In this document: positions 45,984-50,999 of the stretch, piece after piece
How positions within the stretch are numbered: position 1 is the first letter of the stretch
Layout of the letters: every line of letters starts with the position of its first letter
Source of the DNA: Halorarum halobium
Lineage (GTDB): Archaea > Halobacteriota > Halobacteria > Halobacteriales > Haloferacaceae
Reading direction: 5' to 3'
DNA: 64,000 nt
Assembly (NCBI RefSeq): GCF_032116555.1
Contig: NZ_CP134949.1
Coordinates: 1,550,001-1,614,000, forward strand
The notes under the pieces: generated by a model
What the model was told of the DNA's origin: nothing
Database searches by the model: none
What the model saw: the letters and a program-made list of their open reading frames with translations, nothing else
Program-made: the position numbers and the translations under genes

Positions 45984-47675
45984 TCAGGGGAACGGGTGGA
46001 ACGCGCGGTCCGGCCGCGGCTCGAACCCCATCGACGCCGCGACCCGCCCGAGCCGGTCACCGAAGAACGGCTCGCCCGTGAACAGCGGCTGTGCCGCCGG
46101 CACGAGCACGCGGACGCCCTCGAAGCCCAGCTTCGCCACGTCACGCGTGGTCAGCCGGGCGGCGTACGCGTCCAGCCCCGCGTCGTCGAGTCGCCCGAGC
46201 ACTGTCTCCAGTTCCGCGGTCCCGGATGCCGGCTCGCCGACGTCGCCCGCGGGAATCGTCGCGGACGGGTCGACGAACGACCGTGCCTCCCCGGGGAACT
46301 CGGCGTACGTGCCGATGGCTCCCTCCTCGTCGGCCGCCTGCTCGGTGCCCATCGCGCGCAGTTCCATCCAGTTCTGGAGCGCCTCCGCGGCCGCGTCGGC
46401 GGCGGCCGCGCCCGCGTCCAGGTCCGCCGCCGACCCCGCCGCGAACCGCGGCCAGTCCCCATCGCGGTGGACGGCGGCTCCGACCACGGGAACGTCGACG
46501 TCCTGGGTGAGCAGCAGCGGCGTGACGTCGAGGTCCTCCGCGCGAGCCCGGGATTCGACCGCCTCGAAGCGCTCGTCGGCGACCTCGAGCCCCAGCGGCT
46601 CGAACGTGGAGTACCAGGCCAGCATCGTCGCGTCCCGCTCGATCACCTCGTAGAGCCCCGACAGCACCGCCTCGACCGTCGAGTTCCCGAGTCCGAGTCC
46701 CGTCGTGATCGGCGGCTTGAACCGGGACTCGGGCGGCGGGAAGTGGACGAACTCGGCCGGGAGCGACACCTGCTCGTCGGCCCGCAGGTCGAGCCCCCGG
46801 ACCCACTCGACGTGTTCGTCCGGGTCCGGCGACGCGGCCGATTCGGGCCGGACGAAGCGGTCCACCGGGACGGCGTCGATGACGCCCTGGGTCGGCGCGG
46901 AGCGGAGCGCGTCCGTCCGATACACGCCGGCGCAGTACCGCTCCAGCGCCTCGCCGATCGCCTTCGCGTACGCGGCGTCCCAGTCGGGGGAGACGCCGGC
47001 GGCGAACTCGGCACACCGCGCGTCGGAGAACGCGGTGGTGTCGGTCGTTCGTGCGATGTAGTACGGCAGCGGGAACGACTCGCGCTCGCCCACGTCCGTG
47101 ACGACGCCGAGGCGGTCGTCCACCGCGCGATCCATGCGGTTCACCGCGTCGTCGAGGTCGACCTCGCGGTGTGTGAGTTCGAGCCCGTCCGGCGCGCTCC
47201 CGCAGTCACAGTCGGGGCTTGGGAGGAAGGAGCGTTCGTGACCGGGGACCTCGAGGACCGTCCCGCCCAGTTGCTCGCCGCCGAACCCCCGGATCGCTCG
47301 CCGCCCGGCCAGTGCTCCCGCGTACCGGACTGCGCTCCTGGTTCCACGCGGCGTCGCGTCCTCGTCGGGGACGTTCGCGCGGACGCGGTCGGAGAGGCAG
47401 TCGAAACAGCCCGATCCCTCGGAGAACGTCGAAACTGTCGCGTTGAGCCCCTCGATCGGTCGTCCCCCCATCCCCCCGACTTCGATCGCGACCCAGTCGT
47501 CGATCAGTTCGTTCGCCCGCCGGAAGCGGGCGTCGCCGGTCGTCCCCGCGACCACGGCGAACTCGAACCCGTCCAGCAGGTCGACGTCCACCTCCATCAC
47601 GTTGGCGTCGATGTCGGAGAAGGCGGCCCGCACCGCCGCCGCGGCGGGGTCGGGCCCGACGATTGCGATGTCCAT
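45984..47675 (-). CDS. Fused E1-like/YcaO protein (cyclodehydratase-type)
   Basis: N-terminal CFDC...CDC; YcaO motifs GEALERY, GLGLG, LYEVIERDA, EALQ; Pro-rich C-terminus HPFP. Confidence 0.9.
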   Translation of the reverse strand: MDIAIVGPDPAAAAVRAAFSDIDANVMEVDVDLLDGFEFAVVAGTTGDARFRRANELIDDWVAIEVGGMGGRPIEGLNATVSTFSEGSGCFDCLSDRVRANVPDEDATPRGTRSAVRYAGALAGRRAIRGFGGEQLGGTVLEVPGHERSFLPSPDCDCGSAPDGLELTHREVDLDDAVNRMDRAVDDRLGVVTDVGERESFPLPYYIARTTDTTAFSDARCAEFAAGVSPDWDAAYAKAIGEALERYCAGVYRTDALRSAPTQGVIDAVPVDRFVRPESAASPDPDEHVEWVRGLDLRADEQVSLPAEFVHFPPPESRFKPPITTGLGLGNSTVEAVLSGLYEVIERDATMLAWYSTFEPLGLEVADERFEAVESRARAEDLDVTPLLLTQDVDVPVVGAAVHRDGDWPRFAAGSAADLDAGAAAADAAAEALQNWMELRAMGTEQAADEEGAIGTYAEFPGEARSFVDPSATIPAGDVGEPASGTAELETVLGRLDDAGLDAYAARLTTRDVAKLGFEGVRVLVPAAQPLFTGEPFFGDRLGRVAASMGFEPRPDRAFHPFP

Positions 47676-47777: not shown

Positions 47778-48596
47778 TCAGTTCAGCATGCTGTGGGCGA
47801 CGCCGGCCAGGCTGGCCGCGTCGGCACCGCGGAGCTTCTCGTCGCCGAGCTTCAGGCGGAGGCGCGGGCGGCCGACGTCGATGGGGACCTTCTCGGTGTC
47901 GATGAGGCCCATGTCCTCGAGGCGCGTCTTCGTCCGGGAGAACGTCGCCTTCGAGGCGATGCCCACGTCCTCGCCCCACTTGCTGATGTCGTACAGCAGC
48001 ACGTCGTTTTTCGCCGCGACGAGCAGGCTGATGGTGACCTCGTCGAGCCCGTCGCCGTCGCCCCGGGCGGTTTCGAGCGACGAGAGGACCGCGTCGAAGT
48101 CGGCCTGCACGTCCTCGCCGATGTCCTCGGCGAGCGTCGAGCGGACGTGGTCGAGCGGCGGTGTCCGGAGGTTGAACGGCTCCGCCTCGGCCCACTGGTC
48201 GTGGAACGTCTCGTAGGCGTCCGCGATGAACGAGTCGTCGTCGGCCGAGAGCGCGGCGACGTGTTCGCCCGCGCGGACCAGCGCGTACAGCGAGTCCTCG
48301 CCGACCAGCAGCGTGTTGTCGGCGCCGTCCTCGAGGTTTCGGAGCGTCATGTCGCCGGCCTCGACCAGGTCGGCGGCCGCGGAGGCGACGATGAAGTCGT
48401 CCATCACGTCCTTCAGCAGCCGCTCGTCTGCCACGACGTCGAGCGCCGGCAGCTCACCGTCGTACTCCGAGCCGAGCTCCACGAGCGACGTGATCACTTC
48501 GGCCGACGGGTCGACGACCACCAGGTCGCCGTCGGTTCGTTCCAGCACCGCCCTGAGGATATCATCGGTCCCGTCTTCGAGTAAATTCGAGTCCAT
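47778..48596 (-). CDS. tbsP: Haloarchaeal transcriptional regulator TbsP (DUF5821)
   Basis: C-terminal wHTH LLYDISKWGEDVGIASKATFSRTK..LE..GLI.TEKVPIDVGRPRLRL; near glyA. Confidence 0.8.
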   Translation of the reverse strand: MDSNLLEDGTDDILRAVLERTDGDLVVVDPSAEVITSLVELGSEYDGELPALDVVADERLLKDVMDDFIVASAAADLVEAGDMTLRNLEDGADNTLLVGEDSLYALVRAGEHVAALSADDDSFIADAYETFHDQWAEAEPFNLRTPPLDHVRSTLAEDIGEDVQADFDAVLSSLETARGDGDGLDEVTISLLVAAKNDVLLYDISKWGEDVGIASKATFSRTKTRLEDMGLIDTEKVPIDVGRPRLRLKLGDEKLRGADAASLAGVAHSMLN

Positions 48597-48741
48597 GCGT
48601 ATACCTACAGAAGGATACGAGAGATATTTAATACTAACGGGGTTTCCCGGGAATCAAGCGCTCTCTCGACTGTTTCTAGGTAAATTCGCCATGATTTCAT
48701 TTGGCACAAATTACTTGGTCGAGTCCGTGGTATCGGGTGGC

Positions 48742-48927
48742 ATGGGTGGAACTGATTCGGATCGGAGCGCGCTCGGGAGCCGTGCGGTCGGCATCGTCGT
48801 CTCACATCCCCGGCTCGTGACGGCGCTGCTGGTGAGCCTCCTGCTGCTCGCCTCGGCCGACACGGCAGCCGCGTGGGACTCGTTCGTGACGACCCACGGC
48901 GAGGGGATCACGAACACCGGCCCCTAG
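48742..48927 (+). CDS. Small putative secreted peptide precursor (DUF7503-like; not called separately in ORF track)
   Basis: 61 aa: ...SHPR-LVTALLVSLLLLAS-ADTAAA|WDSFVTTHGEGITNTGP; AT-rich promoter about 30 nt upstream. Confidence 0.75.
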   Translation: MGGTDSDRSALGSRAVGIVVSHPRLVTALLVSLLLLASADTAAAWDSFVTTHGEGITNTGP

Positions 48928-50999
48928 TCGAGCAGCCGCTCCTCGATCTCTTCGCGCCAGCGGAGGTCACCGTCGTGGACGATCGGGTTCTCGGAGTAGG
49001 AGAGGAACTCTCGCAGCTCCGCGGCCGTGACCTCGTACTCCTCGGTCGTCCGCAGGAGGCTGCAGCCCTCGTCGTCCCGCAGGTGACAGTGGTGTGTCGC
49101 GCCCGGAAGCCTCGGCCCGTCGACGCAGTAGGTCACGGTGAACTCCTCGTCGCCGGGCTCGCCCGCGATCTCGGTATCCGGCGGCACCAGCGTGTCGGTC
49201 TGGGTGAGGACGTGGGTGCCGTCGCCGACGACCGCGTAGTCCTTCCCGGTCATGATGCGTCGCCGTGCGGCATCGAGCGCGCGCTCGATGGAGTAGCCGA
49301 GCGTCATCAGCCGCGCGAACGTCGTGCCGACCGTCGCGGCCTGTCCGTCGAGCACCTCGTCGAACGTGACCCCGCCCGCGACGCTCCCCTTCCGGACGAG
49401 CTGCTCGCCTTCCTCGTAGGAGCCGCACGCGTTGAGAAAGAACGTCTGGGCGTTCGACTCGGCCAGCGACTCGGCCGAGAAGTGGCCGTCCGCACAGCGG
49501 AGCCCGTCGGTCTCGCAGTGGCCGATGTAGTGGACGAGGTCGTGACGCTCCTCGAAGGTCCGGGCCAGTTCGGCGACGGTCAGGTGCTCGCGCACCTCGA
49601 TGTCAATGTTCAACTCGGTTGCCCGCTCCTCGTAGTGGTCGGCCGCGTCGTCGTACTCCTCGCGCATCGCGCTGTCGTTCAGGACGGCGACGATGGAGAT
49701 CGGCTCGCCGGCCGCGTCGAGGAACGCCGCGCGGTTCCCGTACGCCTCCGGGAGCGTCTTGAACACGTCGATGGGGACGCCGTCGGCCAGCCAGCCGTGG
49801 GTCCGACCGGGACCGAGGTTCGGGCCGACGAGGTCGACCGCGGCGACGTCGCCGGCAGCTCCCCGGTAGAACGACGAGAGCGACCTGTCGAGCCACTCGT
49901 TCTCGGCGAGTTCCTCGGCGTCCGGCAGGAACACGAACGGGAGGTCCCGGAGCAGGTGGGACAGCGTTGGAACGTGCTCGAACCGCGGTTCGACGTACAT
50001 CGAGAGGTGCCACTCGGGCAGGCGTCCCGAGACCTCCTCGAACGGGGCCGACAGGAACCGGTCGACACGCGCCGGGAGCGGCAGTTCGTACGTCGCCTCG
50101 GCGTCGATGCCGAGCGCGTCGAGGTGGGTTTCCTCGTCGAGTTCGCGGCCGTGCGGGCCCGCCGACCGGACGAGACAGTCACAGAAGAACACTCGTCTGA
50201 GGAGGTCGGCGGCCGCCGTCTGGAACAGCGGGAGCCGCGGGAACTCGTGGCGTCGCTCCGGCGTGAGAAGCGCCGGGGTGGCCCCGTCCGCGACGGTCAC
50301 GTCGGCACCGAGATACGAGGCGAGCGGGGCGGCGGTGACGAGCGACGACAGCTCCGCGGGGAGCCGGAGTTCCAGGTCGCTCGACTCCCGGCGGTCCCGG
50401 ACGCTCCGCGGGATCGACACCGCCTCGCCGAACGCGACGTCCGGCCCTCGCCCCCGCATCGACGGAAACGTGCGATCCGGGGTCGTGGTCCGGTAGCCCG
50501 TCGGGAGCACCGAAAGCGCCGTCGCGACGCCGGAGACGGTCCGCGGGACCGTGACGGTCTCCGCGTCCGTGGCGACGCTGCTGTGAAAGCCGAGCGTGAC
50601 CGGGGTCTCGCGCTCGAACGTCACGACGAGGTGTTTGTAGTCGACCCGCGACAGCGTGGCGGGTCCGTCGAACCTGAGTTCCGCCCGGATCGCGCCGCCG
50701 ATCCGGAGCACGTGACGGCCGTCGGGGACCTCCACCGACCCCGACCGGCTCGTGACAGCGAGGCCGTCGCCGTCGCCGAGCGATCGGACCGTCGCGGAGT
50801 AGGGCGGGAACGTGAGCGAGCGCGTCCGACCGGAGACGACCGTCGACGGGATGCGGGACTCCTCGACGCCGAGCGCCTCCAGCGCGGCCCCGAGCGCGGG
50901 CCCGTCCGCGTCCGGGGTCCAGCCCTCCGTCCCGACCGACAGCGTCGTCTTGGCCGCGTCGGTCGCGCGGAGCCCCCCGTCGGTCGTCTCGACCTGCAT
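48924..50999 (-). CDS. Large protein with C-terminal caspase/CHAT-like domain
   Basis: LVHYIGHC and FFLNAC match the caspase-hemoglobinase His/Cys dyad pattern; YAVVGDG; acidic 691-aa ORF. Confidence 0.7.
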   Translation of the reverse strand: MQVETTDGGLRATDAAKTTLSVGTEGWTPDADGPALGAALEALGVEESRIPSTVVSGRTRSLTFPPYSATVRSLGDGDGLAVTSRSGSVEVPDGRHVLRIGGAIRAELRFDGPATLSRVDYKHLVVTFERETPVTLGFHSSVATDAETVTVPRTVSGVATALSVLPTGYRTTTPDRTFPSMRGRGPDVAFGEAVSIPRSVRDRRESSDLELRLPAELSSLVTAAPLASYLGADVTVADGATPALLTPERRHEFPRLPLFQTAAADLLRRVFFCDCLVRSAGPHGRELDEETHLDALGIDAEATYELPLPARVDRFLSAPFEEVSGRLPEWHLSMYVEPRFEHVPTLSHLLRDLPFVFLPDAEELAENEWLDRSLSSFYRGAAGDVAAVDLVGPNLGPGRTHGWLADGVPIDVFKTLPEAYGNRAAFLDAAGEPISIVAVLNDSAMREEYDDAADHYEERATELNIDIEVREHLTVAELARTFEERHDLVHYIGHCETDGLRCADGHFSAESLAESNAQTFFLNACGSYEEGEQLVRKGSVAGGVTFDEVLDGQAATVGTTFARLMTLGYSIERALDAARRRIMTGKDYAVVGDGTHVLTQTDTLVPPDTEIAGEPGDEEFTVTYCVDGPRLPGATHHCHLRDDEGCSLLRTTEEYEVTAAELREFLSYSENPIVHDGDLRWREEIEERLLD

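Follow-up and report, generated by a model that had tools for sequence, protein, structure and literature searches.

The window analysed here, a stretch of 64,000 nucleotides from Halorarum halobium (assembly GCF_032116555.1, contig NZ_CP134949.1, positions 1,550,001 to 1,614,000 of the forward strand), carries a small gene for a precursor that ends in Gly-Pro and, convergent with it, a gene for a large partner protein with a predicted caspase fold. Together they represent a real, widespread and uncharacterised peptide-protease pair. Both parts bear labels, DUF7503 for the short precursor class and an automatic CHAT name for the partner, and their link is undescribed in the literature searched: no report connecting DUF7503 or its Haloferax volcanii representative HVO_1270 with the partner HVO_1269 was found, most subscription papers and bioRxiv supplements lying outside that search. 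We give roughly even odds (a probability of about 0.5) to the reading that the tail of the peptide, exported and re-imported, gates a cytoplasmic caspase-fold protease. This reading is preferred because the Gly-Pro motif is terminal, selection acts on the tail, the peptide is coupled to the catalytic dyad, paralogous tails differ, the neighbours are regulatory and the nearest folds are allosteric.

A conserved peptide gene beside its partner

The pairing was tested at 80 loci from named genomes, one of which was dropped because it lay at a contig end, over the interval from -30 to +200 bp of the large gene's stop. A convergent frame closing with Gly-Pro-stop was found at 63 of the 79 remaining loci. 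The corresponding figures were 42 of 2921 for other windows and 5 of 450 for the ends of other genes, so that the small frame is conserved beside homologues of the large gene over a background of about 1%. The full family set comprises 189 non-redundant copies of the partner, 175 of them dyad-intact (both His and Cys present) and 14 dyad-less. A Gly-Pro-stop frame lies within 250 bp of 140 of the 175 dyad-intact copies and of none of the 14 dyad-less ones. Thirteen further relatives of the precursor were chosen by eye (four extending past Gly-Pro, four more distant, four truncated before Gly-Pro and one ending in Gly-Leu), and with these included a peptide frame accompanies 153 of the 175. Five of the 140 Gly-Pro frames lack a suitably placed ATG.

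The partner family occurs in 133 of the 151 Halobacteria genomes searched, with 1-8 matches per genome; outside Halobacteria it was found in 4/4 genomes of one family and 11/12 of another, and in 0/154 across 19 further families. When the lists were compared by eye, DUF7503 proved to be present in 121 of the 133 protease-bearing genomes and in none of the other 18. In three of four genomes (L225, L227, L228) of a low-GC family outside Halobacteria the pair is retained, its precursor showing a clean signal-peptide pattern and a tail predicted at 7 residues. In H. halobium itself the large gene is present three times, and each copy is paired with a separate precursor that has a different tail; among 65 short Gly-Pro-ended open reading frames of this genome, six have a hydrophobic core, and three of those six adjoin proteases.

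The original prediction had described a 61-residue frame consisting almost entirely of signal peptide, and its HPR motif, hydrophobic core, TAAA site and 17-residue tail were all recovered from the sequence (Table 1). Its n-region (residues 1-24) ends in HPR (22-24) and is followed by a 13-residue hydrophobic core (25-37; Kyte-Doolittle hydropathy, KD, 2.85); an AxA-type site places the cut behind residue 44, the last Ala of TAAA. The predicted tail (48874-48924) ends in Gly60-Pro61. Signal peptides were judged throughout by sequence pattern and hydropathy alone. An alternative in-frame ATG exists at 48691, and the 61-residue start is favoured because a TATA-like element ends 26 bp before 48742. 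The stop overlap with the large gene, also part of the prediction, is real in the window (4 bp, CTAG, 48924-48927) and is not a feature of the family, being found at 18 of 140 loci (median offset +5, range -22 to +221).

The short precursor class is Pfam DUF7503 (PF24335), and the window's peptide is a related longer variant: it scores 17.8 bits (E 0.0025), under the gathering cut-off of 27, and two paralogous precursors of the same genome score 72 and 50 bits, above it, and align with the window's precursor on Pro23, Gly60 and Pro61.

Several lines of evidence indicate a gene under selection. The terminal Gly, Pro and stop are written with all 4, 4 and 3 codons available. Ratios of nonsynonymous to synonymous substitution (dN/dS) were estimated over 43 disjoint pairs, the Gly-Pro codons, having defined the set, being given no weight; they amount to 0.19-0.23 in the short hydrophobic class and 0.33-0.42 in the window's class, and tail positions -10 to -3 give 0.13-0.33. 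In the polar class, whose precursors have no hydrophobic core, strong constraint falls on the last 10 residues only, and since the tail is held (0.13) with the rest nearly free (0.64), the tail is the functional unit. Translation, a further point on which the original prediction hung, has been demonstrated for the H. volcanii relative: HVO_1270, 46 residues long and convergent with HVO_1269, is leaderless, translated (ribosome profiling efficiency 22) and positive by mass spectrometry according to the supplement of PMC10117724, where a FLAG-tagged HVO_1270 also appears in Figure S5. A chance reading frame or a conserved DNA element is ruled out by the background rates, the free codon use, dN/dS and the translation of HVO_1270.

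Tail identity follows partner identity, from 0.10-0.13 where partners are less than 50% identical to 0.68 at 60-70% and 0.98 above 90%, and it is 0.12 among 31 within-genome pairs. Co-evolution of peptide and partner was set aside as evidence, shared descent yielding the same identity pattern. Two oddities of precursor architecture were seen: L177 has its tail twice in one frame, and G015 (C1:486534-486796) has two tandem DUF7503 genes with equal scores.

The partner and its predicted caspase fold

The 691-residue gene with its HYIGHC (His494) and FLNAC (Cys525) motifs was confirmed on the minus strand. None of the 189 family members has a hydrophobic N-terminus. In structural alignments of residues ~330-601 with VIA-align, the best match was gingipain RgpB (Z 19.1, root-mean-square deviation (rmsd) 3.6, 255 aligned), followed by SAVED-CHAT (Z 17.3, rmsd 2.5, 170 aligned) and separase (Z 16.8, rmsd 4.7, 236 aligned), with DdvA (Z 14.5), Csx29 (Z 13.8), the OaAEP1 ligase (Z 10.5) and glycosylphosphatidylinositol (GPI) transamidase (Z 9.5) at lower ranks. 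SAVED-CHAT was also the top Foldseek match of the model (E 5.5e-8). His494 follows strand 486-492 and Cys525 follows strand 517-523, the central strands on which a clan CD dyad is expected, and His494, Asn523, Cys525 and Ser527 are conserved in 175/175 dyad-intact copies, down to ~25-30% identity. The caspase/CHAT-like assignment of the original prediction therefore stands as to fold and dyad position in the model, and falls short in that the His-Gly motif and a match to Pfam CHAT (PF12770) are absent.

Profile searches placed the protein in no named family: no Pfam or NCBIfam profile matches it, PF12770 is also unmatched in four paralogues, and the label "CHAT domain-containing" is an automatic UniRef/Atlas name only. 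A profile search of PDB sequences gave 0 matches, and a search of 1.84 billion representatives gave 732, of which the best 150, those listed, all belong to the partner family.

The N-terminal half is less readily placed. Foldseek returned nothing for the first 328 residues at E up to 0.001, and an Atlas feature search with residues 1-420 gave no usable match. Residues 1-144 weakly resemble the galactose-mutarotase-like and YidC periplasmic sandwiches (Z up to 8.1, rmsd 3.2, 124 aligned), and the resemblance may reflect no more than a common arrangement. No clear structural match was obtained for residues 145-329, the fold searches having barely covered residues 145-328. This middle module carries Arg176, Arg182, Asp274 and Arg278, invariant in 175/175 dyad-intact copies, and is the candidate ligand-reading module.

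Two further observations concern individual copies of the partner. A clade of nine copies without dyad and without peptide (L150, L135, L143, L159, L123, L127, L131, L132, L139) is nested beside the tbsP clade, to which the window's copy belongs; four of the nine lie directly behind genes grouped in one cluster, represented by a PAS histidine kinase, and three stand in a tandem array in G051. At L229 (G028) the peptide gene is intact, and the protease gene is broken into two reading frames that overlap (profile positions 7-259 and 239-679).

A proposed peptide-gated protease and its alternatives

According to the gating mechanism, in lineages whose precursors have a hydrophobic core the precursor would be exported by the Sec pathway, signal peptidase would release the tail, and the tail would be taken up again by cells. 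The partner would then read the terminal Gly-Pro, perhaps by means of the invariant arginines in its middle module, and binding would allosterically switch the His494/Cys525 protease, as in other CHAT proteases. The switched protease may cut a regulatory protein, TbsP being the first candidate in the window's clade, and TbsP might in turn repress the peptide gene, providing feedback. In Natrialbaceae, a polar precursor would act without classical export. Craspase and separase are allosterically gated proteases (PMC11506125). In H. volcanii, the HVO_1270 promoter is peak 3 of the nine TbsP chromatin immunoprecipitation peaks, with the motif present (PMC11023807, Table 3), and the same study ties TbsP to adhesion, motility and shape. 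The window's own promoter matches the published motif only with three or more mismatches.

In operation the module would resemble two known kinds of system, its peptide half RRNPP signalling and its receptor half the ligand-gated CHAT proteases; by the features tested it belongs to neither. RRNPP signalling, known from Bacillota and their phages, includes Rap-Phr, PlcR-PapR, NprR-NprX and AimR-AimP. As in those systems, the partner, predicted to be cytoplasmic, has beside it a small precursor whose C-terminal tail varies and which in 89 of 135 cases shows a signal-peptide pattern, and a genome may hold several paralogous pairs with differing tails; unlike them, the partner has a caspase fold and no TPR or other helical repeat array in its model, the two genes converge, and an export signal is missing from one large clade. 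With SAVED-CHAT (8tl0), Csx29/Craspase (7y9x, 8eey) and DdvA (8rot) the partner shares the clan CD fold, the His-Cys dyad and an attached non-catalytic module. It differs from them in that its module, a beta-sandwich plus an alpha/beta module, is neither SAVED nor TPR, its His is not followed by Gly, and a dedicated peptide gene lies alongside; no CRISPR or CBASS (cyclic-oligonucleotide-based antiphage signalling) context was seen among the partner neighbours examined. Gingipains (4ief, 4rbm; Z 19.1, 18.6) and separase (5fc2) are the best structural matches and cover the catalytic and the preceding subdomain, but identity is 11-14%, the partner is not secreted as gingipains are, and it is without the helical repeats of separase. 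The HP[RK]-hydrophobic-Gly-Pro layout is that of DUF7503 and HVO_1270, from which the window's peptide departs as a longer variant under the cut-off. Haloazolisin YcaO clusters (PMC4603692, PMC9953058) are paralleled by a YcaO gene behind tbsP and by Ser/Thr/Gly-rich tails; unlike in those clusters, YcaO is not consistently clustered with the precursor, and it is treated here as a neighbour.

A number of findings weigh against the gating mechanism. No peptide gene lies near 22 of the 175 dyad-intact copies, four precursors have no Gly-Pro, and four run 3-5 residues beyond it. The dyad-less copies form only two clades (nine copies, and five that are very divergent and poorly aligned), so that the 0/14 reflects at most two events. 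No convergent Gly-Pro frame was found at 11 distant full-length relatives in the other non-halobacterial family (L214-L224), four of which show HYAGH. The invariant arginines are mostly retained in the nine-copy dyad-less and peptide-less clade (in 6, 9 and 5 of 9). As for export, a hydrophobic core is present in 89 of 135 precursors, the window's included, and absent from 46, mostly in Natrialbaceae, which are polar with a near-fixed end of the form VSTYGGP; predicted export by signal peptide is therefore common, not universal. Clan CD proteases carry a His-Gly motif, in which the Gly directly after the catalytic His belongs to the oxyanion hole. That Gly follows His494 in 0/175 copies (Cys 104, Ile 32, Val 19, Ala 12, Arg 4, Thr 2, Ser 1, His 1), and catalysis may therefore be altered.

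The regulatory side has its own difficulties. TbsP is present in 15 of the 18 genomes without the protease, and 4/4 genomes of the low-GC family have no TbsP_N match; the core therefore consists of the protease and the peptide, and TbsP is a companion of long standing. In the promoters of the clade the TbsP motif shows no clear enrichment (13 observed against 8.4 expected, up to two mismatches), and clustered neighbours of the 80 copies outside it include no conserved transporter. In H. volcanii, loss of tbsP raises HVO_1270 by only 1.72 log2, a borderline effect (false discovery rate < 0.06 in Table 3, p 0.014 and adjusted p 1 in the full sheet; PMC11023807), and a published table shows no response of HVO_1270 RNA when qarA is lost (adjusted p 0.11 and 0.46).

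Among the alternatives, the partner could be the maturation enzyme of the peptide, cutting off the leader or using transpeptidation to cyclise or ligate the Gly-Pro tail, a reaction known within clan CD from legumain-type ligases and GPI transamidase. There is one enzyme per precursor, loss of the dyad accompanies loss of the peptide, the four overrunning precursors look as if cleaved at Gly-Pro, the residue after His is unusual, and the fold is shared with OaAEP1 and GPI transamidase. These ligase-type folds nevertheless rank below gingipain, SAVED-CHAT and separase; the signal-peptide pattern would place the tail outside, away from a cytoplasmic enzyme; the genes are convergent and form no operon; and a YcaO gene is near just 35 of the 109 loci of the window's clade and none of the other 80. 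As Gly-Pro is a free terminus in 140 cases, a ligand fits better than an internal cut site. Maturation by the partner is the strongest of the rivals to gating and is considered unlikely.

We regard it as quite improbable that the partner is a non-catalytic receptor, holding the tail in the old active-site cleft, using His and Cys for binding and signalling through protein contact. The missing His-Gly motif and Pfam CHAT match would suit such a receptor, and dyad-less paralogues persist beside histidine kinases, which suggests that the scaffold can work without catalysis; set against this, His494, Asn523, Cys525 and Ser527 are kept in every dyad-intact copy, on the expected strands of the model. 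Little credence is given to the peptide as a cognate inhibitor of an otherwise harmful protease (securin-like, or as in a toxin-antitoxin or defence pair) that never passes between cells. In its favour, the two genes are closely paired, the H. volcanii relative is strongly translated, polar precursors would stay inside and the nearest CHAT folds are defence proteases. Against it, the 22 intact proteases stand without a nearby peptide gene, the clade occupies a stable housekeeping site beside glyA at 100/109 loci, no match was found in 50,697 phage records, the 27 matching plasmid records are all non-mobilisable haloarchaeal replicons, and an inhibitor would have little use for an export signal.

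If the gating mechanism is correct, most salt-loving archaea would combine two kinds of system so far known apart, peptide pheromones and CHAT proteases gated by ligands, in an undescribed archaeal peptide-signalling system: a protease of caspase fold controlled by a peptide that the cell makes itself. Only tentatively would we go further and propose that Gly-Pro peptides are private cell-to-cell signals, each with its own caspase-fold protease receptor, forming 1-8 or more channels per genome that are wired through TbsP and other regulators to switches of shape, motility and adhesion, and that are older than Halobacteria.

Two questions in haloarchaeal biology, for which a short peptide and a clan CD protease are candidates, are touched by the module. 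In the accessible parts of PMC12240190 and PMC13464002 the quorum-sensing signal of H. volcanii has no assigned molecule, and in that of PMC3615174 no gene had been assigned to haloarchaeal caspase-like activity. For both, the module supplies something to test: a peptide 7-20 residues long, a single cysteine, and TbsP, which binds the promoter of the H. volcanii peptide gene. The disk-forming signal does not exceed 3 kDa and withstands both autoclaving and proteinase K (PMC12240190), properties with which a very short peptide may be compatible. HVO_1271, the neighbour of HVO_1270, responds to conditioned medium (log2 -2.8, adjusted p 0.006, published table). HVO_1269 is absent among the rows listed in the three published H. 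volcanii tables searched, and given this and the lack of an HVO_1270 response to qarA loss, no link to the disk-forming signal is claimed.

Promoter and genomic neighbourhood

Profile searches confirmed that the pair lies between tbsP and glyA, the latter divergent from the large gene, and the AT-rich divergent promoter that had been proposed is evident in the base composition of the gap between tbsP and the peptide gene (Table 1).

Table 1. Features of the peptide-protease locus in the window (positions are those of the window)
Feature	Position	Strand	Basis
Gly-Pro precursor gene, 61 residues	48742..48927	+	Translation, hydropathy; long variant related to DUF7503
Partner, 691 residues, predicted cytoplasmic (signal peptide and membrane segments absent)	48924..50999	-	Maximum KD19 1.22; model with predicted local distance difference test (pLDDT) 92, predicted template modelling score (pTM) 0.92
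Clan CD (caspase-hemoglobinase) region, residues ~330-601	49197..50012	-	His494 49518-49520, Cys525 49425-49427; structural alignment
Middle module, residues 145-329, alpha/beta and helical	50013..50567	-	Arg176, Arg182, Asp274, Arg278 invariant
N-terminal beta-sandwich domain, residues 1-144	50568..50999	-	Secondary structure of model
tbsP transcription regulator, divergent from peptide gene	47778..48596	-	NF047393, 397 bits (cut-off 300)
Shared divergent promoter region, 145 bp	48597..48741		46% GC against ~70% around
Conserved AT-rich element, likely tbsP core promoter	48625-48640		29 bp before tbsP ATG
TATA-like element for peptide gene	48705-48716		Sequence
YcaO cyclodehydratase, haloazolisin type, directly behind tbsP	45984-47675	-	PF02624, TIGR03604 above cut-off

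Neighbour counts refer to the flanks available, 0.3-4 kb overall and 1.5-4 kb in the window's clade. Within that clade, tbsP faces the peptide gene at 101 of 109 loci, and the other 80 copies have neither tbsP nor YcaO in their flanks (0/80 each). Seven of the eight tbsP-less loci of the clade are also without a peptide, which adjacency alone could account for. TbsP as an obligate third part is ruled out by its presence without the protease and by the pair's presence without it in the low-GC family, and YcaO as an obligate link is ruled out by its frequency at the loci.

Elsewhere the neighbours include DUF7504, a HalX response regulator with TrmB, and a helix-turn-helix protein, with histidine kinases beside dyad-less copies. 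At 26 of the 80 non-tbsP copies the protease gene is immediately preceded by a DUF7504 gene of the same orientation (for example L003:3663-4466, minus strand), which sometimes touches it and whose product is a candidate substrate or partner. In G146, 16 TbsP-like matches and 12 protease matches (some being two pieces of one gene) were counted, and four duplicated protease copies each keep a tbsP paralogue behind them.

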